Source: Minisyncoccota bacterium
GTDB lineage: Bacteria > Patescibacteriota > Minisyncoccia > Phycocordibacterales > JABMNX01
Length of the DNA: 64,000 bases
Direction of reading: 5' to 3'
NCBI GenBank assembly: GCA_026195275.1
Contig: JAPHQU010000003.1
Location: 7,852-71,851, forward strand
The notes under the pieces are model-generated. The model was not told the origin of the DNA. It did no database searches and saw nothing but the letters and a program-made list of their open reading frames with translations. This document shows, piece after piece, positions 33,598-61,705 of this stretch. Every line of letters begins with the position of its first letter. The stretch's first letter is position 1. The translations under genes and the position numbers were made by a program.

Positions 33598-33939
33598 ATG
33601 GGCGAGCAAGTCCTTATTGACGGCATGTCGTTCGAGGAGTGGGTGGAACTTTTCAAGGATAATTCTGATGAGTTTGAGCGAAAGAGGCTTGCTCTACTTA
33701 ATGCGGAGATTGAAAAGCATCCAGACGAGAACGTACGCGAGCGATTACGTGCAGTCTTGTGGGAATTTGAAACGAGGATGGGTAAGGTGGATAATCCGAT
33801 TGCTCGATTCAATGCAGTTGTAGCGGATCTTCTTGGAAATCGTCTACAAGCGCTTAATGACGCACTTAACAACCCACCTGCTGTTCTACGCGGAGACGGC
33901 GCGGATATTGTCCAACTTTTTCCTGGAGATAAGGAATGA
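33598..33939 (+). CDS. hypothetical acidic protein
   Basis: 113-aa ORF, no family recognised. Confidence 0.35.
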   Translation: MGEQVLIDGMSFEEWVELFKDNSDEFERKRLALLNAEIEKHPDENVRERLRAVLWEFETRMGKVDNPIARFNAVVADLLGNRLQALNDALNNPPAVLRGDGADIVQLFPGDKE

Positions 33940-34006
33940 GAAGGTTTACTTGAAAGAGCTGCGAATATATCGCAGCTCTTTTTCTTTTACCTGGTATACT
34001 TTCTGT

Positions 34007-34525
34007 ATGAAGTCGTACAAGAAGATTGTCGTGAATAACAAGATGCAGCGTGGATATCGCTACGAGCTCACGGCGCGTGAGGGGAAGGATTTTGATAAAG
34101 ACTTCAAGCCGGAGCTCACCCCGAAGCAGATGCTCGCACTCGGTGTCTTTGGTGGAGTGTATATGCGTGACTGCATCAAGGAGTTTCCAAAGGACTGGTT
34201 TACGAAAGCTAAGTTCCAAAAGGAGGGAAGTTACGTGCATGATCCGGAGATAAACTTCTTTGGTGTGAATGCGAGTCAGCCGCTCTCTGTCTGGAGAAAG
34301 AAAGGGTGGATACACAAGGATGACCCTCGTGGATGGCTAGAGTGGTACTGCCGCTACTACAGGGGGCGAAGGCACGAAGACGATGCGCGGCAAATCAAGA
34401 GGTGGAAGGCATTTCGAAGGCATGCGGCGCAAGTGGCGAAGAACTGCCGCAAGGGAGACTTCTCGTGTCGCCCCAAGCAGCGCCAGGCGCTGCTTCACTG
34501 GGCGTATGACAGTCGAAAGATATAA
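34007..34525 (+). CDS. hypothetical basic Trp/Arg-rich protein
   Basis: 173 aa starting MKSYKK. Locally higher GC (about 58% in its 3' half). No family recognised. Confidence 0.4.
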   Translation: MKSYKKIVVNNKMQRGYRYELTAREGKDFDKDFKPELTPKQMLALGVFGGVYMRDCIKEFPKDWFTKAKFQKEGSYVHDPEINFFGVNASQPLSVWRKKGWIHKDDPRGWLEWYCRYYRGRRHEDDARQIKRWKAFRRHAAQVAKNCRKGDFSCRPKQRQALLHWAYDSRKI

Positions 34526-37247: not shown

Positions 37248-37467
37248 AGCAAGAGCGCATACGCCCCTGGTATCATCCTGATGAAATTCACTAAGCAGTC
37301 GTTGTTAAGAACGGATTACATCTTCTTGTTTCTGGTGGTAGCGTCCCTGCCGACAGACTTCTTTTTGGTATATTCGTGTGTACTCACTTTGGTGCGTAGA
37401 CACCTTTGCGCAACATCAGGATAACTCCGTGTTATGGATACCACGCCTCTGATATACTTTATGGTAA

Positions 37468-38931
37468 ATGAGCAATACTTCATTTGATTTTAATCTAAAG
37501 ATATTGCCAGCTGCAATCATGTGTGCCGGTCTGGTTGTTCTTCTATTCCTGCACCCTAATGTGTACGATGCGCAAGCGACAACAACTGCCTACCAATTTC
37601 CAAACGTCTTAGCTGACGGATCGCTTGATACTGCGTGCGCGGATGGTGCTGCTCAAGTAACATTTACCGGCTATGTCGTGACTCAGTTGATACCGAGTGC
37701 GAGTGCAAGTTGTTCTGGCGACAAACCGAAAAGAGACAGGGTAAACTACACAATATCTAGTACCGCAGAGCAAGACCTGATCATGTCGTATCTTGATAAT
37801 GGTGGATATGCTGCTGATACAGTGGTCACTGGACAGGCCTCAGGAAATGATATCTATCTGAAAATCAAAGATACTAATGGGACGGGATACATTAAGCTCG
37901 TTGAAGTTAATCCTGCTAATGGTGCGGTTATCTCGACGGTTGACACGTACTCATTTCCAATGACAATGAATATAAAATATTTGGTTACTGACCTATCGGG
38001 CTTGTTTGGTACCATCCCTGCAGGAAGTACATTCGGTATAAAATTATCTATTACCCCCGATGATCTTACGAGTACGCAAGTTGAAACCAAGTTCGGTCTA
38101 TATGGGACCACCGAGAAGCAAGACTTAGTCAATATCGATGAGACCGAGGTGGTTGTTCCTTCTGGCACGGGTGACCCATCGGACGTTGGTGGTGGTCCTG
38201 CTACGCAGGTCTATTTCTCCGGTCAGGCCTACCCATCAAGCACCGTTGAGGTTCTCAGGAGGAGTTTCATTGAAGATGTTTACCGGAATACTCCAGAAAC
38301 GACTATCGTCATGAATCCCGATGGATCGTTTTCAAATACATACGTCGGACTTTTGAGCAGTGACTATGTCTTTACGCTGCGTGCATATGACGTTGACGGA
38401 CGAACCTCAGGAGCACTCTCCTTTGTTGCCGACCTTCTCTTCACTGACACGCTAAGAGTTGAAGACATCTTCTTCCCGCCGACAGTCGGCTTCAGGAAGT
38501 CGGCGGCCCTCAAAGGCGAAGATGTGTATATCGTCGGTTATGCCGCAGGTGGGAATACGGTACTATTAGATGTAGCTGGGGTTGGTGTGCTTGAGACAAC
38601 TGCAGCAACGTCAACCGGATTCTATGAAGTGTCGCTATCGACAGACAATCTTGCAGCGGGGAGTTACTCTGTTGTCGCGAGGCAGATATCAGACACCCAG
38701 GAGAGTAATTACTCCACACCCAGATCATTCCGCGTGAGCACGTGTTGTATTCGGACTGATTTTAACGCTGATAATGAGGTAAATATAACTGATTGGAGTA
38801 TCTTCCTATACCGCTTCCAGTCCCAAGATAAGTCACTCCACGCTTCAGTAGACCTTAATGGCGATGGAAAGACTGATATCACTGACTTTAGTCTCTTCCT
38901 GCAATCCATCACAATACCCGACATCCTCTAA
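37468..38931 (+). CDS. secreted surface protein with C-terminal type-I dockerin module
   Basis: N-terminal signal/TM. The C-terminus has two Ca-binding segments, DFNADNEVNITD and DLNGDGKTDITD, each followed by SxF(L) helices. This is the canonical dockerin duplicated F-hand. Confidence 0.7.
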   Translation: MSNTSFDFNLKILPAAIMCAGLVVLLFLHPNVYDAQATTTAYQFPNVLADGSLDTACADGAAQVTFTGYVVTQLIPSASASCSGDKPKRDRVNYTISSTAEQDLIMSYLDNGGYAADTVVTGQASGNDIYLKIKDTNGTGYIKLVEVNPANGAVISTVDTYSFPMTMNIKYLVTDLSGLFGTIPAGSTFGIKLSITPDDLTSTQVETKFGLYGTTEKQDLVNIDETEVVVPSGTGDPSDVGGGPATQVYFSGQAYPSSTVEVLRRSFIEDVYRNTPETTIVMNPDGSFSNTYVGLLSSDYVFTLRAYDVDGRTSGALSFVADLLFTDTLRVEDIFFPPTVGFRKSAALKGEDVYIVGYAAGGNTVLLDVAGVGVLETTAATSTGFYEVSLSTDNLAAGSYSVVARQISDTQESNYSTPRSFRVSTCCIRTDFNADNEVNITDWSIFLYRFQSQDKSLHASVDLNGDGKTDITDFSLFLQSITIPDIL

Positions 38932-40589
38932 TGTTCATTTATATAGTTATGACCACACAGTATCGATACAAACAGATAATCTATGGAGGACTCCTGAGTG
39001 TTTTCTTATTCTTTACCATTACGTCAATGGCGCATGCCGCAACGTTACGCTTGTTGCAGAATGGCGAGTTTGATACCGGTCCCGGAGGGAAGATATCGGT
39101 GAATCTTGTGGTTGATACCGGGAGTATCTATATTAATGCCGCTGAGGCAAAAGTTTCCTTCTCAAATGATATTCTTGAACTGGTGAGTGTGGAGCGCACT
39201 GGTTCAATCTTCAACTTCTGGCTCAAAGAGCCGGAGTACTCAAATAAGGAAGGCGTTATGACGTTTGCCGGGGGTACGCCGCGTGGTGTCTCCGGTAATT
39301 CGCTACAGATACTCAGACTTCATTTCCTCGTGAAGGGCGTTGGGGATGCCGATGTGCAAATAGAGGACGGGGTAGTAAGCGCGAACGACGGAAAAGGGAC
39401 TAACGTGCTCTTTAATATCGAGAATCTCTGTATCGAGAGTTGTGGGATTGGTGCCCAGACCGTGACGACCGCGCGGCAGCCCGTAGCAGGACAAGAGCAA
39501 CCAGTTGAGGTTGTTCATACGCCAGTGCCTGGAGAAGCAACGCCCGAAGCACCGGAGCTTCGGGTGAACCTCTATTCTGATCAGACTCTGTGGCATAACT
39601 ACACCGGAGACACAATTGTGTTGTGGAAACTACCAAATGACGTAACAAAGATCGCAACCGCCTTAAACCATAATCCGAATGGAGTGCCGCAGACCTCTAC
39701 CAGCCAGCTCTCAACCGGAAAGGATTTCGGCGCACTTGATGAAGGTGTCTGGTACGTCCATGTTCAATTTAAGAACAATGTGGGCTGGGGTGCGGTCGCA
39801 CACCATCGCATCGCGATAGACACGACGCCACCGACTGTACTCGAAGTGGAAATTGAGAGAGACTCTGAGGAGGATCCGACTGCAGAGATAACACTTCACG
39901 GACACGACGCGCTCTCGGGAATCTCCCATGCAGATATTTATATTGATGGAGAGAAGATAGAAACTGTCTCATCAAGAGAAGGACATCTCGAAACATCTCG
40001 CCTTGTTCTCCCATCGGTTAATCCGGGCCGTCATGTGATTGGTGTTGAGATGTTTGATGTTGCCGGAAATAGTATTGAAGAGCGAATGGAGATTGATGTC
40101 TTACCAATCCAAACTCCGAGGATTGTTTTTAAGCCTGAGGTTGCGCACCTTGCTGGTGGTGAATTTGTATGGGGGTACGGAATGGCGCACACGCTCGTCA
40201 CGCTTCGGCTGGTCTCCGAAGAAGGGTTTGAAGTCTTCTCAAAGACCGTAGAGAGTACCGGCGAGGGACATTGGATGGTGAATCTCGACACAGCACTTCC
40301 TAATGGTGTGTACACACTCGAGGTGAGCGCTGAAGATGAGCGCGGTGCACGAAGCTACCCAACTACAACAGCATTGGTGGTTAAAGAAGAGATATGGATA
40401 TTCACAATTGGCGCTCACGACTTTAGTCTGCTCGAGATTGTACTTGCCGGCGCCCTACTGCTCATCTTTGTGTCTGGGTTTGTACCTGAATCACGAAAAG
40501 AGGCAATCTTACGAAGATTCTTTGCCCAGAAGGAAAAGAGCAAGGAAAAGAAGCCGACAAAGGAGAAGCGTGCTTCAACGGGACGGTGA
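38931..40589 (+). CDS. membrane-anchored protein with N-terminal cohesin-like domain
   Basis: After the signal/TM comes GKISVNLVVDTGSIYINAAEAKVSFSNDILELVSVERTGSIFNF..., matching the cohesin beta-sandwich pattern. Ig-like middle region, C-terminal TM helix and basic tail. Confidence 0.5.
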   Translation: MFIYIVMTTQYRYKQIIYGGLLSVFLFFTITSMAHAATLRLLQNGEFDTGPGGKISVNLVVDTGSIYINAAEAKVSFSNDILELVSVERTGSIFNFWLKEPEYSNKEGVMTFAGGTPRGVSGNSLQILRLHFLVKGVGDADVQIEDGVVSANDGKGTNVLFNIENLCIESCGIGAQTVTTARQPVAGQEQPVEVVHTPVPGEATPEAPELRVNLYSDQTLWHNYTGDTIVLWKLPNDVTKIATALNHNPNGVPQTSTSQLSTGKDFGALDEGVWYVHVQFKNNVGWGAVAHHRIAIDTTPPTVLEVEIERDSEEDPTAEITLHGHDALSGISHADIYIDGEKIETVSSREGHLETSRLVLPSVNPGRHVIGVEMFDVAGNSIEERMEIDVLPIQTPRIVFKPEVAHLAGGEFVWGYGMAHTLVTLRLVSEEGFEVFSKTVESTGEGHWMVNLDTALPNGVYTLEVSAEDERGARSYPTTTALVVKEEIWIFTIGAHDFSLLEIVLAGALLLIFVSGFVPESRKEAILRRFFAQKEKSKEKKPTKEKRASTGR

Positions 40590-47348: not shown

Positions 47349-47954
47349 TCAGTTCAGCCCGCCAGGAATTCCCGTCGGTGCGGGCGTGGGAATGACGCTG
47401 GATACCGGGGGTTGAGACCCGGAGCCATTGGAGCTGCGTCCAGTCATCCATTTGGGAAGCCACTTGGGCTTCACAACACGGACACCGACAACAATCGCGA
47501 CTGCCGCAATCCGCGTCTTGTTGGCGTAAATTGGGTCGTCGTCTCCAAGGTCAATGCCAATACACCCGTTATCGTTGCAGTGAATCGCAACGATGCGGGA
47601 GAGATGGTCGATAACTGAATCAACCTCTTCTCCGGCGACTTCGTAGAACTGCACCATACTCCCATCGGGGAGGACGTGCACTTCACGACCACCGACGATA
47701 TACGAACGTTCGTAGAAGTCTTCGGGCAGTGTGAACGTTTGCGCGTCCGGTGCGCACCCAGGGGTGCATTCGAACACAACGCTGTCGATGCGGTCCCAGA
47801 AAGGACCCCACGCGCTCCGGGTCACTTCGACTCGAAGTACCCCACCATCTTGCTTTTCGACTGCCATGTCAACACCGGCAGACGCCGGTGTTGCGTCAAT
47901 AACGAAAAGTCCAGTGAGAAAGAGAACGGCAAAAGCCGCGGTCAATTTTTTCAT
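47349..47954 (-). CDS. hypothetical secreted protein
   Basis: Signal peptide ending ASA-GV. Several Cys. Locally elevated GC. Confidence 0.4.
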   Translation of the reverse strand: MKKLTAAFAVLFLTGLFVIDATPASAGVDMAVEKQDGGVLRVEVTRSAWGPFWDRIDSVVFECTPGCAPDAQTFTLPEDFYERSYIVGGREVHVLPDGSMVQFYEVAGEEVDSVIDHLSRIVAIHCNDNGCIGIDLGDDDPIYANKTRIAAVAIVVGVRVVKPKWLPKWMTGRSSNGSGSQPPVSSVIPTPAPTGIPGGLN

Positions 47955-58960: not shown

Positions 58961-59033
58961 GGGCCTGTAGCTCAGTTGGCTAGAGCACTTGTTTTGCACT
59001 CAAGAGGTCGCAGGTTCGATTCCTGTCAGGTCC
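58961..59033 (+). tRNA. tRNA-Ala (anticodon TGC)
   Basis: G3:U70 identity pair, anticodon loop TTTGCAC, T-loop GGTTCGATTCC. Confidence 0.8.
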
Positions 59034-59042
59034 ACAAAATAC

Positions 59043-59072
59043 AAAACACCTCACAATCTCGTGAGGTGTTTT
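59043..59072 (+). terminator. terminator after tRNA-Ala
   Basis: Hairpin aaaacacctcacaatctcgtgaggtgtttt. Confidence 0.55.
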
Positions 59073-59213
59073 GTATTTTGTGGACTAATAGACAGGGATC
59101 AAACGACGGAACTCCGCATGAAGCGGGGTTTTTTGTTTTGGTTGTGTCCATATCTGAATCAAAATGCTATTGATTCCTCATTACCGCAACTTTTTTGTAT
59201 ACTACCTATACAT

Positions 59214-59627
59214 ATGAAGAAAAGAAACATACTCGTACTCGCCATACTGGTCTTGCTGATAATCGTAATCCACGATGATCAAAGTTTTGAACCTCAGGAT
59301 ATTGGAGAGTTGCGCAAAGAGGTCTACTCAAGTATTGAGGTGCCACCTCCATACGTGTTCACGACCGACGGGTGCAGCCTCTGGCCAAATAGCATCTGGG
59401 GTGAAGATCTGACAGATATCTGTATCGAGCATGATATTGAATACTGGAGAGGAGGAAGTGCCGAAGAAAGGAAACAAGCAGACGATTTATTGCGAGAGAG
59501 GGTAAACAAACGTGCACCTTTTGTGGGGGATATCATGTATCTTGGAGTCCGGGCGTTCGGTGGGTTGTTTATGCCCACATCATGGAGGTGGGGATACGGT
59601 TTTAACTACCCGGGATTCTCATACTGA
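59214..59627 (+). CDS. hypothetical secreted/anchored protein (C..HD..EYW region)
   Basis: 137 aa with an N-terminal hydrophobic segment. No family recognised. Confidence 0.35.
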   Translation: MKKRNILVLAILVLLIIVIHDDQSFEPQDIGELRKEVYSSIEVPPPYVFTTDGCSLWPNSIWGEDLTDICIEHDIEYWRGGSAEERKQADDLLRERVNKRAPFVGDIMYLGVRAFGGLFMPTSWRWGYGFNYPGFSY

Positions 59628-59676
59628 TCCTTTGAAGATAACCACAGGCAATGTTTAGTAGAAATATGTAGAAAAT

Positions 59677-59705
59677 AAACACCAACCCGGGTTGGTGTTT
59701 ATTTT
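59677..59705 (+). terminator. terminator hairpin (same stem motif as at 18031)
   Basis: aaacaccaacccgggttggtgttt followed by a T tract. Confidence 0.5.
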
Positions 59706-59897
59706 GGCTTATAATAAACCTATTTCCGGGCAATTAGCCGGCATTTTAAGGATAATATTACACCATATATATGGATACATGTAAATATTTACAAAAACAT
59801 CTTTTTAGAGTTAAATACTACGAGCCGCACCACTTTGGTGTGGTTTTGTCTCAAGTGAGGCAGAACGTTCTTTTCACAAACGAAAGAGGAATTTCAC

Positions 59898-60314
59898 ATG
59901 CAGATCAAGAAAACCTTCTTGGCCGCCGTTGCGGTCTTTGCTCTGGTCGCCCTCAGCATCTCGGCTCCGTCCTTCGCGGGCGGCGGCAATCACAACGATT
60001 ACAGCGGCGGGTTCGCCAATGGCGCCTCCGCTATCAGCGGTGTCGCGGGTGGTTCCTTCGCTGTTGCCGGCCCTGGCAATGCCAGTGGATACGCCGGTAC
60101 GGCGGCGAGCGTTTCGACCCGTGCCAGCGTGGACGGTTGCGGCTGTGACATGTCTGCCTCGGGTGCTTCGTCTGGCATGAGCGACTCGTATGCGCGTACC
60201 TCCGGCAACGCCGAAGCCGGCGCCGGTTCCGATTTCTGGGGCGAATCGTTCGCTTCCGATTTCGACTACGGCGACTGGTCCGGTCACAGCCACGGTCACG
60301 GTCACGGTCACTAG
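59898..60314 (+). CDS. secreted Gly/Ala/Ser-rich protein with C-terminal HGHGHGH tail (high-GC island gene 1)
   Basis: Signal peptide (SFA-GGG), low-complexity G/A/S-rich body with a CGCD motif, terminal SHGHGHGH. About 63% GC versus about 47% in the flanks. Confidence 0.55.
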   Translation: MQIKKTFLAAVAVFALVALSISAPSFAGGGNHNDYSGGFANGASAISGVAGGSFAVAGPGNASGYAGTAASVSTRASVDGCGCDMSASGASSGMSDSYARTSGNAEAGAGSDFWGESFASDFDYGDWSGHSHGHGHGH

Positions 60315-60387
60315 ACCTGGTCGATGACCAAAGGGGTGAGAGATTCCTCTCACCCCTCCTCTACACCCTCGAAAGGAGAAGTGAGCC

Positions 60388-60948
60388 ATGAAAAAATATC
60401 TTCTCATGCTCGCGTCACTCGCTATGGCGGCGTTCGTCTCGGTGGGACCGGCTTTTGCTGGCGACACTTCGGCTGAAGCCGCGGCGCAAGCCGTTAGCGG
60501 CTCGGGCGCTGTCAGTCAGCAGGGGCAATCGATCTACCAGAACTTCGAGGGTTCAACCTCGAACACCAAGGTGGTCAATGCTCCTGACGCGGTTGCGCCG
60601 GGTCTTACGACCTCGTACGCAAACACCTGTCACGGCTCGACCAGTGGCGGCGCATCCTTCGGGAATGGTGCCGTTGCAATCGGTGCGTCCTTCGGGACGA
60701 CCTGGAAAGACGAGGGGTGCGAAGCGCGCCTCGACTCTCGAGAACTCCGTTCTCTCGGACAGAAGGAAGCCGCTCTCGAGCGACTCTGCCAGATTCCCGA
60801 GAATGCGGCCGCTCTCAGAGCCGCCGGACGTCCGTGTCTCGCTGATCAGCAGAAGACACAGGCCGAAGCTGCCGAAGCCCAGGCGTATCTTGAGCAAGGC
60901 AACGTTCCTCAAGTGGTTGCGAAACTCGAGCCCAACAGTAATACGTGA
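60388..60948 (+). CDS. secreted hypothetical protein (high-GC island gene 2)
   Basis: Signal peptide (AFA-GD), four Cys, high GC. RBS aaggagaag upstream. Confidence 0.5.
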   Translation: MKKYLLMLASLAMAAFVSVGPAFAGDTSAEAAAQAVSGSGAVSQQGQSIYQNFEGSTSNTKVVNAPDAVAPGLTTSYANTCHGSTSGGASFGNGAVAIGASFGTTWKDEGCEARLDSRELRSLGQKEAALERLCQIPENAAALRAAGRPCLADQQKTQAEAAEAQAYLEQGNVPQVVAKLEPNSNT

Positions 60949-61026
60949 ATCCGGGCAAGGAATCCAACCCAAAGCAACGCCACTCCAGGAGTTCTCTCCT
61001 CGAGTGGCGTTTTTCTTTAGAGGCTA

Positions 61027-61055
61027 TTGACAGTAAATGAATAATACTGTAGAAT
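61027..61055 (+). promoter_or_regulatory. near-consensus sigma70 promoter TTGACA-N17-TAGAAT
   Basis: ttgaca gtaaatgaataatactg tagaat, followed by RBS aaaggagaa and the ATG at 61094. Confidence 0.55.
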
Positions 61056-61093
61056 CTGCTTAGATTAGAGTATTCAGGAAAGGAGAACACTCG

Positions 61094-61606
61094 ATGAATA
61101 TCAAGATGCTCGTTGGGGCGTTCGGCCTCATTGTCTCGCTCTCGGCGTGTGCCGCGACCGGCAGCCAAACTGGCTTTGCCGAGCCACCGCCCGAGGCGAT
61201 GCAGCCAAAGATCGACCTGAAACCACTTTCGAAGAAGGTCGGCGAAAAGCTTGTTGGTACCACATGGACCGGCAATCTCTCTCTCATGAACTGTGAGGAT
61301 GCGGAAGTGAGATACGAGGTGGTGAAGTACCTCGAGAACGCGAACCGCCTCCTCGTCAAAGTGGAGAGCAAAGAATGCTCGGCGATGGATGGCAACTACG
61401 TCGGTCTGATTCTTCCGAATGGCCGTGTGGTTGTCGCGGATCGCTACGAAGTCCGACAGATTGATGCCGACCTCGGCGCCAACCAGGAGACCGGCGAAAT
61501 CAAAGACGAGGGTCTTTTCACCTTCGTCATCAACGACCGCCGCGACAACACTTTTCGTGAAATCATCCGGAGGGTGACCAAGCTTTTGCGGACCGACACT
61601 CGGTAA
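61094..61606 (+). CDS. putative lipoprotein (high-GC island gene 3)
   Basis: Lipobox-like LSLSAC at the end of the signal peptide. High GC. Confidence 0.5.
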   Translation: MNIKMLVGAFGLIVSLSACAATGSQTGFAEPPPEAMQPKIDLKPLSKKVGEKLVGTTWTGNLSLMNCEDAEVRYEVVKYLENANRLLVKVESKECSAMDGNYVGLILPNGRVVVADRYEVRQIDADLGANQETGEIKDEGLFTFVINDRRDNTFREIIRRVTKLLRTDTR

Positions 61607-61637: not shown

Positions 61638-61705
61638 AACCCCAGTGCTTATGCACTGGGGTTTTCTTTTTAACGCCTCACTTCGAATGAGGCGTTAATT
61701 TTTAT
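61638..61705 (+). terminator. tandem rho-independent terminators closing the island
   Basis: Hairpins aaccccagtgcttatgcactggggtt and taacgcctcacttcgaatgaggcgtta, each followed by T tracts. Confidence 0.6.

Follow-up and report, generated by a model that had tools for sequence, protein, structure and literature searches.

Three adjacent genes for exported proteins, here called g1, g2 and g3, lie within a 64,000-nt stretch of a Pacebacteria contig (the whole of this stretch is referred to as the window) and probably make up a genuine, horizontally acquired and conserved cassette. The g1-g2-g3 arrangement is a conserved unit in distantly related Patescibacteria, being found in both Pacebacteria and Saccharibacteria MAGs, and transfer is well supported by its patchy distribution and by its foreign codon usage in each genome. 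To our knowledge, almost nothing is known about the surface proteins of CPR/Patescibacteria. These bacteria have tiny genomes and a lifestyle that needs contact with other cells and the survival of phages. The present finding adds a concrete candidate for the remodelling of these surfaces, a small cassette of exported proteins that has its own regulatory signals, passes between distant CPR lineages and is related to envelope genes of phages and Proteobacteria, and it joins three orphan protein families into one unit. Were the cassette merely cargo of hypothetical proteins, it would still be a clean case of gene flow into CPR genomes.

Composition of the insert

All three genes are on the plus strand: g1 (OQJ98_01930, 59898-60314, 138 aa), g2 (OQJ98_01935, 60388-60948, 186 aa) and g3 (OQJ98_01940, 61094-61606, 170 aa). 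The initial annotation, made from the sequence without database searches, had placed three ORFs at 59898-61606, and the ORFs are exactly as it described them. It had also described a jump from 45-48% to over 60% GC. Measured GC is.640,.602 and.561 for g1, g2 and g3, so that the figure of over 60% holds for g1 and g2 but not for g3 (56%), and the background is about 49% rather than 45-48% (GC.493 +/-.030 and GC3.515 +/-.054 over 63 long ORFs of the window). Compared with all 1.7-kb sliding windows of the 64-kb window, the island ranks first both in GC (.584 vs.491 +/-.019, z ~5) and in tetranucleotide distance (.422 vs.240 +/-.031, z ~6), and the compositional deviation therefore stands when computed, as the top outlier on each measure. 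The spacers inside the insert are AT-rich, with GC of.44 and.35-.39.

The third codon positions, which had been noted as rich in G and C, have GC3 of.719 (g1),.626 (g2) and.713 (g3). As a control, synonymous codons were redrawn from host codon usage while the amino acids of each protein were kept fixed. Expected GC3 under this redraw is.49-.52, and the observed values exceed it with z = 5.4 for g1, 3.2 for g2 and 5.2 for g3. Amino acids alone lift the expected GC to.57 for g1 and.56 for g2; the Gly/Ala-rich composition of these two proteins makes up about half of their total GC excess and codon choice the remainder.

Occurrence in other genomes

All three genes are present, in the order of the window, on a Saccharibacteria MAG contig (L009/L017), between Mur ligase genes and a T4CP gene, and at locus L006, where the products are g1-like (43% identity), g2-like (55%) and g3-like (27%, E = 2e-15). 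The g1 match of L006 retains z = 15.9 when composition is controlled for. Locus L007 carries g1 and g2, and L013 carries g2 and g3; the occurrences besides the Saccharibacteria MAG are short metagenomic contigs. All relatives of g1 and g3 were missed by word-index search, and the g3 family was recovered by full HMMER. Pattern scans were made with an alignment of the cassette subfamily, since the sequences of the broad g2 alignment diverge too much, and the cassette-type g2 pattern gave only one match among 185,579 species-representative genomes. The g2 sequences of the cassettes group in a clade of their own.

In the Saccharibacteria genome (38% GC) the GC3 of the cassette genes is.65,.48 and.51, vs.22-.35 in 12 flanking genes, an offset larger than that in the window genome. 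The flanking genes differ between the Pacebacteria and Saccharibacteria hosts. Horizontal acquisition of a secreted-protein cassette, as proposed in the initial annotation, is thus upheld on two counts: the anomaly survives the amino-acid control, and the cassette is again GC3-foreign in Saccharibacteria among other flanks. The Saccharibacteria junctions are identical in the MAG, in a per-run Logan assembly and in GenBank metagenome records. A T4CP gene follows the L009 cassette; a link to the T4SS of Patescibacteria was considered and rejected, the window having no T4SS genes. T4CP genes are often orphan in Patescibacteria genomes (PMC12102498).

Boundaries and origin

The insert spans ~59.7 to 61.7 kb, about 2 kb in all, with sharp GC steps at its left and right edges. 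It is flanked by housekeeping genes (UvrABC, Ddl, tRNA-Ala and an RNHCP-domain protein), the g2 copy of the window sitting between Ddl/tRNA-Ala and the RNHCP-domain gene. The left edge is a perfect 34-nt inverted repeat at 59672-59705 (AAAATAAACACCAACCC/GGGTTGGTGTTTATTTT), which looks like a bidirectional terminator of the upstream host gene. A terminator had been described at this edge as a recurring one; the palindrome is there, but a scan of the window for its core motif, with up to three mismatches allowed, gave this one copy only. The right edge has the two tandem intrinsic terminators that had been noted, on the plus strand at 61638-61663 and 61670-61698. No integrase, transposase or other mobility genes were found in the surroundings of the insert, profile searches of the neighbours gave no phage genes or prophage around the cassette, and a search of the insert region for inverted and direct repeats gave no convincing flanking direct repeats. 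The tRNA-Ala gene was considered as an integration site and dropped; it lies 860 bp upstream of the insert with a gene of host-like GC in between, and has no att-like duplication.

Besides horizontal acquisition, the genes could be of native origin and inherited vertically, with a GC excess that arises from Gly/Ala-rich proteins together with selection for G/C-ending codons under very high expression. The share of the excess explained by amino acids in g1 and g2 agrees with this, as does the fact that, at most loci, g2 homologues have a slightly higher GC than the DNA around them, and the promoter, Shine-Dalgarno sites and terminators of the cassette would fit high expression. Nevertheless, g3 is not Gly/Ala-rich and yet reaches a GC3 of.71, the Saccharibacteria offset is bigger still, and the single match among the species-representative genomes and the differing flanks of the two hosts do not fit vertical descent, so that a native origin is unlikely; the window contains no ribosomal-protein genes by which an expression-linked bias could be calibrated. 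Very improbable is an assembly chimera, in which a fragment from an organism of higher GC would have been built into the Pacebacteria contig: mis-joins are common in MAGs of uncultured bacteria, this contig is known from one assembly only and GC changes abruptly at either edge, but two mis-joins 2 kb apart would be needed, exactly at intergenic terminators and framing a cassette complete with its own promoters and terminators, the AT-rich spacers inside the insert bear conserved cassette signals, and the Saccharibacteria counterpart has consistent junctions over several assembly records.

As regards the source of the horizontally acquired cassette, the suggestion that a host or partner organism was the donor is not established. 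The nearest relative of g2 (62% identity) is on a 1-kb contig with 60% GC, and the more distant relatives are those of phages and Proteobacteria. A phage could be considered as the vehicle for the whole cassette, but neither g1 nor g3 has homologues in the viral contigs or phage records searched, and the island has no DNA-level similarity to phage records.

Transcription signals within the cassette

The signals described here are all on the plus strand. Upstream of g1, the region 59780-59816 (TTTACA-17 nt-TTAAAT) is a putative promoter for g1. It holds a 14-nt palindrome, TGTAAATATTTACA, whose TTTACA is the -35 element, and its -10 (TTAAAT) failed the -10 rule of the promoter scan. The stretch before g1 aligns with its counterpart in Saccharibacteria L009, where TTTACA-17-TAACAT is at the matching spot. 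The g1 leader contains a hairpin of 11 pairs followed by UUUUGU (59822-59846; folding energy of the leader -27.6 kcal/mol, z = -3.7), which may be an attenuator and which the L009 leader does not share.

Between g1 and g2 there is a perfect 11-bp, GC-rich hairpin without a U-tract (60332-60357). A strong hairpin is found at this place in all four cassette loci (window, L006, L007 and L009), with unrelated sequences. An intrinsic terminator 3' of g2, comprised of a 16-nt stem and then TTTTTCTTT, is at 60976-61019, and its position is conserved in alignments of L006 and L009. The promoter TTGACA-N17-TAGAAT that had been proposed for g3 was found at 61027-61055 as a promoter-like site agreeing with the consensus at 11 of 12 positions; its equivalents are TTGACA-17-TATAGT in L006 and TTGACA-17-TACCAT in L009, and a terminator followed by a TTGACA-N17 promoter thus precedes g3 in three loci. 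Promoter, Shine-Dalgarno sites and terminators of the cassette are strong. Rfam searches of the island for riboswitches or sRNAs gave sub-threshold noise only.

The encoded proteins

Signal-peptide-like N-termini, which had been reported for all three products, were confirmed in the sequence. The g1 product has a Sec-type signal peptide with predicted cleavage after SFA and an acidic mature protein of 111 aa that is ~58% Gly+Ser+Ala. The CGCD motif seen initially is present in it, as is the HGHGHGH tail, its C-terminus being YGDW-SGHSHGHGHGH. No match was found in Pfam, NCBIfam, PHROG or PADLOC, and none to curli or other known secreted Gly-rich repeat families (Pfam/NCBIfam, E <= 1). The orthologue in L006 has the tail HYHGNHNHG and the motif DCRC; that of L009 lacks both Cys and the His tail and ends in FYFGW, and the L007 protein ends in HFGW. 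Of the four cassette g1 proteins, two thus have a His-rich tail. Gly-rich partners of the g2 domain in phages and Proteobacteria were tried as homologues of g1 and rejected (z ~0 against composition-matched shuffles); they are analogous only, the link of g1 to such partners outside the cassette clade being one of composition and position.

The g2 product has a signal peptide and a low-complexity linker in addition to its conserved domain. Four cysteines are invariant in this domain or nearly so (C81 and C111 in all sequences, C134 and C150 in 90% or more), and its motifs include TC(H/M)GSTS and SFGTTWxDxxC. Among the cassette genes g2 alone matches PHROGs, namely the profile PHROG 20531, a family annotated as of unknown function (E = 9e-13, residues 47-166); four homologues (P0004, P0005, P0011 and P0014) match the same profile with E = 4e-13 to 4e-21. 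No match was found in Pfam, NCBIfam or PADLOC. In the structure model high confidence is confined to the C-terminal helices, which form a helical bundle, and neither the PDB profile search (nothing useful) nor Foldseek (nothing significant) gave structural relatives. The domain is predicted to be disulfide-bonded, with C81-C111 and C134-C150 as the expected pairs, and located in the envelope.

Homologues of the g2 domain occur in phages of Pelagibacter, Ralstonia, Agrobacterium and Achromobacter (tblastn matches in 11 phage records and 23 viral contigs), where they lie in phage gene neighbourhoods, as well as in Burkholderia, Novosphingobium and Variovorax replicons; the window g2 itself is not in a phage genome. 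Members of PHROG 20531 such as HTVC023P gp45 of Pelagibacter, JP1_110 of Agrobacterium and RSP15 ORF122 of Ralstonia share with g2 the signal peptide, the linker and the four-cysteine core. Unlike g2, each phage member stands as a single gene in the genome of a phage with a diderm host, without recognisable g1 or g3 homologues. The domain is often beside an exported Gly-rich partner or fused to it, as neighbouring genes or N-terminal fusions, and in phage RSP15 and in L035 the domain is fused with g1-like regions. In Novosphingobium-like genomes the g2 domain is N-terminal to an OmpA domain (Pfam PF00691, E = 5e-21; the NCBIfam YiaD and Pal models also match the OmpA part), a fusion that would place the domain in the wall-proximal envelope. 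In this it resembles the OmpA-C-like peptidoglycan-anchored proteins of the Pal, YiaD and YfiB class; however, the window g2 has no OmpA domain, and those families give no match to the g2 domain itself.

The N-terminus of the g3 product, MNIKMLVGAFGLIVS-LSAC, contains the lipobox that had been noted, with a predicted lipid-attachment Cys19, and g3 is accordingly a predicted lipoprotein. The lipobox L(S/V)AC is present in five of five family members, and g3 has the motif LVGTTWTG and two conserved cysteines. The AlphaFold model consists of an N-terminal helix and an 8-stranded antiparallel beta-barrel with pLDDT >90 for residues 40-170. A lipid-anchored protein with a helix and an up-and-down barrel recalls the calycin-type barrels (bacterial lipocalins, avidins, the fHbp C-terminal barrel and DUF3598), and the best Foldseek PDB matches, DUF3598 (2o62), rhizavidin, the fHbp barrel and a tick lipocalin, point to a calycin-like fold, although all of them are weak (E of at least 0.025, TM.35-.48, identity of at most 15%) and are not accompanied by a sequence-family match. 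Foldseek gave nothing significant against BFVD and PDB, the PDB profile search gave nothing, and there was no match in Pfam, NCBIfam or PADLOC. Two further candidates were put aside: an assignment as 'Rz-like spanin' (PHROGs, E =.13-.22), in which the alignment was confined to the signal peptide, and matches to giant Ig-repeat proteins (DUF11, ASH), a weak similarity to beta-sandwich repeats.

Possible function

A surface-coat module anchored to the wall or membrane is our tentative reading of the cassette, with a specific mechanism that we infer as follows. The genes g1 and g2 would be co-transcribed and g3 transcribed from its own near-consensus promoter, and the hairpin 3' of g1 would raise the output of g1 relative to g2. 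The g1 product could then be an abundant, largely disordered Gly/Ser/Ala-rich component of the surface or matrix, and the g2 product its wall-proximal partner or anchor; the g1-like/g2 and g2/OmpA fusions suggest a structural role of the g2 domain in the envelope. The membrane-tethered, calycin-like barrel of g3 would serve in membrane attachment or ligand binding, as a counterpart of the OmpA tether of the diderm versions if the cassette hosts are taken as single-membraned. The net effect may be a remodelling of the cell surface, e.g. a block to phage adsorption or contact with partner cells. It is possible, though doubtful, that this represents a surface-coat or anchoring system, so far unrecognised, whose genes travel together between Patescibacteria and in which a phage/proteobacterial domain is used, g3 replaces the OmpA anchor, and the product is a phage shield or a host-cell interface. 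No PADLOC match to anti-phage defence was obtained for g1-g3 or their neighbours at E <= 0.1.

A comparison can be made with phage 'moron' or lysogenic-conversion envelope genes (cf. PMC3952083). Like these, the cassette is a small, autonomous unit with its own promoter and terminator, atypical composition and exported or lipid-anchored proteins, and one of its genes, g2, is common to phages. Examples of such genes are those for superinfection-exclusion lipoproteins, among them Ltp, from S. thermophilus phage TP-J34, as well as Llp and Cor, from T5-like and phi80-like phages. The window cassette differs from them in having no surrounding prophage, and in sequence and fold it is unrelated to Ltp, Llp and Cor, none of which is among its Pfam, PHROG and Foldseek results.

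Two other functions are each improbable. A role in metal handling, with g1 as a His-rich periplasmic or extracellular binder of Ni, Zn or Cu and with g2 and g3 as helpers, would account for the CGCD motif and HSHGHGHGH terminus of g1, for the corresponding tail and DCRC of L006, and for the Gly-rich partners in Burkholderia and Novosphingobium that end in HH or H. It is at odds with the Saccharibacteria and L007 termini, with the absence of metal transporter, regulator and chaperone genes among the neighbours, and with the lack of a match of g1-g3 to any metal-binding family. Metal binding by g1 had been suggested from its motif and tail; as the core function it is weakened by the presence of such a tail in only half of the cassette g1 proteins. 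The cassette could also encode a secreted toxin and its immunity protein, g1 and/or g2 being Gly-rich and bacteriocin-like and the g3 lipoprotein protecting the producer. The g1 product is indeed small, acidic, Gly-rich and exported with a Cys pair, a separately transcribed lipoprotein is a common layout of immunity genes, and the cassette is horizontally mobile. Its proteins, however, have Sec signal peptides and not bacteriocin leaders, there is no dedicated exporter, no toxin, immunity or defence model matches g1-g3, and the fusions of g1-like regions to the g2 domain and of the g2 domain to OmpA suggest instead a structural envelope role.

The g2 domain with its Gly-rich partner is present in cultivable systems, namely Burkholderia cenocepacia, Novosphingobium humi, Agrobacterium phage JP1 and Ralstonia phage RSP15, so that its function is open to experimental test.

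Composition and setting of the island

The three open reading frames of the island, all on the + strand, lie where the initial annotation placed them: g1 (59898-60314, 138 aa), g2 (60388-60948, 186 aa) and g3 (61094-61606, 170 aa). They correspond to NCBI proteins OQJ98_01930, _01935 and _01940, on a 155.6-kb contig from a MAG that bears the name 'Candidatus Pacebacteria bacterium'. Of all the 1.7-kb sliding windows, the one over the island ranks first in GC (.584 vs.491 ±.019) and in tetranucleotide distance from the window average (.422 vs.240 ±.031), bearing out the foreign composition initially proposed. The reported GC step is present, with a background of ~49% rather than 45-48%, and a GC above 60% holds for g1 (.640, GC3.719) and g2 (.602, GC3.626) but not for g3 (.561, GC3.713); the 63 long ORFs of the window average.493 ±.030 in GC and.515 ±.054 in GC3. 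To allow for the high Gly, Ala and Ser content of g1 and g2, synonymous codons were redrawn from the codon table of the host. The expected GC3 is then.49-.52 and the observed.63-.72 (z = 5.4, 3.2 and 5.2 for g1, g2 and g3). Amino-acid composition accounts for roughly half of the total GC excess in g1 and g2 and codon choice for the other half; in g3 essentially the whole excess is due to codon choice.

The insert extends from about 59,706 to about 61,700. On its left is a perfect 34-nt palindrome (59672-59705), described initially as a recurring terminator; a search allowing up to three mismatches found its core at just one place in the window. On its right are the two terminators expected, at 61638-61663 and 61670-61698. 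The surroundings are of housekeeping character (GyrA, ClpB, IF-2, RelA/SpoT, TopA, SerRS, Tgt, UvrB, UvrA, UvrC, Ddl), with tRNA-Ala and a small exported phospholipase-A2-like protein after Ddl, and an RNHCP-domain protein and membrane proteins beyond the island. Genes for an integrase, a transposase, phage structural proteins or a T4SS were not found near the island, nor were direct repeats flanking it.

The exported 137-aa protein between tRNA-Ala and the island (59214-59627, +) matches prokaryotic phospholipase A2 PF09056 weakly (E =.011, below the family cutoff) and the phage family phrog_6098 better (E = 2.8e-7); its gene is host-like in GC and so lies outside the GC-rich insert. A 25-nt perfect inverted repeat (59030-59054 / 59061-59085) overlaps the 3' end of tRNA-Ala(UGC) (58961-59035), and no copy of that 3' end was found downstream of the island. 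Elsewhere in the window, the next most GC-rich real ORF (47349-47954, -; GC.563, GC3.594, z = 2.2-2.4) encodes a 201-aa protein that has a signal peptide and matches nothing in Pfam; this gene may have been acquired too, at an earlier date. Among host genes GC3 peaks (.66, z = 3.8) in 33833-34525 (+), also lacking a Pfam match, whose long N-terminal extension suggests a true start further downstream. Two large adjoining proteins at 37468-40589 (+), with weak dockerin and bacterial Ig-like (Big_13) matches, lie in the region that, away from the island and its surroundings, deviates most in tetranucleotides (sliding window starting at 37401).

Conservation of the cassette

Apart from the protein of the window itself, a word-index search returned 13 relatives of g2; for g1 and g3 it returned nothing but the window's proteins. 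All three genes recur in the same order on L006, a 1,983-bp metagenomic contig, where the g1-like protein (43% identity, E = 2e-18) carries a DCRC motif and an HYHGNHNHG tail, the g2-like protein is 55% identical, and the g3-like protein is a lipoprotein (27% identity, E = 2e-15). On a second metagenomic contig, L007, a g1-like C-terminus precedes the closest relative of g2 (62% identity). A full HMMER search with g3 recovered a small family of lipoproteins (P0017, P0018, P0019, P0021). One of these, P0018, is preceded by g1-like and g2-like genes on L009, a 56.6-kb contig of 'uncultured Candidatus Saccharibacteria bacterium', with MurI, Mur ligases and DUF4015 on one side of the cassette and a T4CP-like gene on the other. 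A further contig, L013, holds g2 and g3. HMMs made from each of the three families detected g1 and g3 in cassette loci only; both are absent from all ~35 phage, viral or proteobacterial loci with a g2 homologue, and neither IMG/VR contigs nor GenBank phage records yielded g3. Neighbour-joining groups the cassette g2 sequences in a separate clade. The gene after the Saccharibacteria cassette (L009 8638-10410) encodes a VirD4/TrwB-like coupling protein and is accompanied by an LTD/PKD-domain protein; since the window has nothing comparable, the adjacency is probably coincidental.

Regulatory signals are likewise shared. A strong hairpin follows g1 in every cassette (4/4 loci), in the gap before g2 and with unrelated sequences; the window copy (60332-60357) has an 11-bp perfect stem without a U-tract. 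In the window, L006 and L009 a terminator lies directly 3' of g2, and a promoter-like site for g3 (TTGACA-N17-TA...T) within ~10-50 nt past it. The promoter proposed for g3, TTGACA-N17-TAGAAT, is indeed present at 61027-61055 and matches 11/12 consensus positions. Upstream of g1, the window and L009 have in common a TGTAAATATTTACA-like element, within which TTTACA can serve as a putative -35; the upstream scan in L009 gave TTTACA-17-TAACAT. Shine-Dalgarno motifs stand in front of all three genes in the window. From these sites the layout is therefore promoter-g1-hairpin-g2-terminator followed by promoter-g3-terminators. The g1 leader of the window also has an 11-pair hairpin followed by UUUUGU (59822-59846, +; leader z = -3.7 vs shuffles), which may be a transcription attenuator; it has no equivalent in the Saccharibacteria leader and matches no Rfam family.

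Origin of the cassette

The Saccharibacteria cassette is also foreign to its contig. Its genes have GC of.58,.53 and.51 and GC3 of.65,.48 and.51, against a background GC of ~.38 and a GC3 of.22-.35 in flanking genes (n=12). The two g2 proteins are only ~38% identical and the cassettes are thus old relatives, yet each deviates from its present host at synonymous sites, so that separate, relatively recent arrivals fit better than vertical descent. Overall, the island is likely a conserved cassette for exported proteins that was acquired horizontally. The alternative, native genes whose codon bias is driven by expression, is disfavoured by the GC excess of g3, the larger GC3 offset in the Saccharibacteria host and the patchy distribution of the cassette; the window contains no ribosomal-protein genes by which to calibrate such bias. 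The Saccharibacteria junctions recur in a MAG, a per-run Logan assembly and GenBank metagenome records, which argues that GC-rich inserts of this kind in CPR genomes are real. Misassembly of the island into the contig, raised initially, is unlikely given this GC-foreign counterpart with recurring junctions and regulatory signals that travel with the cassette.

Cassette proteins and the g2 domain in phages and Proteobacteria

Signal-peptide-like N-termini in all three translations, the CGCD motif and HGHGHGH tail of g1 and the LSAC lipobox of g3 were seen as first described. Mature g1 (111 aa) is acidic (pI 4.7), consists of 58% Gly+Ser+Ala and has no match in Pfam, NCBIfam or PHROG. Compared with composition-matched shuffles, the resemblance of g1 to its L006 counterpart stands out by a wide margin (z = 15.9), the one to the Saccharibacteria protein marginally (z = 2.6), and the one to the L007 fragment not at all. 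The four have no more in common than their position and size, the signal peptide and an aromatic-Gly-Trp motif at the C-terminus; a Cys pair is present at 2/4 loci, and so is a His tail.

Among the cassette genes only g2 is assignable to a family, its core matching PHROG 20531, of unknown function (E = 9e-13). The protein comprises a signal peptide, a low-complexity linker and the conserved core, in which C81 and C111 never vary and C134 and C150 are kept by 90% or more of the sequences. Its AlphaFold model is confident for the C-terminal helix bundle only (residues 109-169), and no PDB relative was found by sequence or fold. Phages of Pelagibacter, Ralstonia, Agrobacterium and Achromobacter carry the domain, as do 23 IMG/VR contigs, phage-like metagenomic contigs, and Burkholderia, Novosphingobium and Variovorax replicons. 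In the Novosphingobium-like genomes an OmpA peptidoglycan-binding domain (Pfam E = 5e-21) is joined to its C-terminal side in a single protein. An exported Gly/Ser/Thr-rich protein often adjoins the g2 domain (loci L001, L015, L020, L023, L024, L025, L052 and L053), several such partners terminating in H or HH, and in Ralstonia phage RSP15 ORF122 and L035 a Gly-rich region with a CxxxxC pair is fused to it. Homology of these partners to g1 was not demonstrable (z about 0), and the link is one of composition and position.

The g3 model has pLDDT >90 over residues 40-170, with one helix and eight antiparallel strands. Its best folds are calycin-type barrels (DUF3598, avidins, fHbp barrel, lipocalin), all weak (E >=.025, TM <=.48), and nothing significant was found among viral models. 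On a T4-like phage contig (L003 79-1903), two tandem g2-domain genes, the second a short lipoprotein version, are followed by a 181-aa lipoprotein that appears by eye related to the one 3' of the L001 g2 homologue; neither resembles g3 in sequence.

Possible function

All three products carry predicted export signals, and g3 is predicted to have its own transcription and a lipid anchor. As judged from sequence, the four cysteines of g2 are a signature typical of extracytoplasmic proteins, and its domain is wall-tethered in some diderms by the OmpA fusion; low-complexity partners of the g1 type are repeatedly its neighbours or fusion partners. A specific surface-coat model is offered tentatively and is itself rather doubtful: g1 would be overproduced and form a disordered part of the surface or matrix, g2 would be its disulfide-stabilised partner or anchor, and g3 would provide membrane attachment or ligand binding where an OmpA/outer-membrane context is absent, the net result being a remodelled cell surface. 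The g2 domain is found in phages, in some cases together with a Gly-rich partner and lipoproteins nearby, so that altering the envelope against further phage attack would be a plausible role. A toxin plus immunity cassette is compatible with the gene layout, while the g2-domain fusions and OmpA tether indicate a structural role. Metal binding, suggested initially from the g1 tail, became less likely as the core function of the cassette, the His tail not being conserved within the family and no metal genes lying near the island; an accessory role of the tail is possible, since a His-ending partner recurs in Proteobacteria.

In its autonomy, foreign composition and envelope products the cassette resembles a phage 'moron' or small genomic islet, but it has no prophage context or mobility signatures. 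The libraries searched contain no description of the three-gene unit, of its occurrence in two lineages of CPR or of an association between the g2 domain and Gly-rich partners, and a literature search made for context brought up nothing on the unit. Experimentally tractable relatives of the g1/g2 pair exist in cultured Proteobacteria: in Burkholderia cenocepacia (L052 3177-6242) and Novosphingobium humi (L053 3074-4753), exported Gly/Ser-rich proteins ending in ...GWTYHH, ...GSSH or ...SSGHH are encoded directly upstream of the g2-domain protein.
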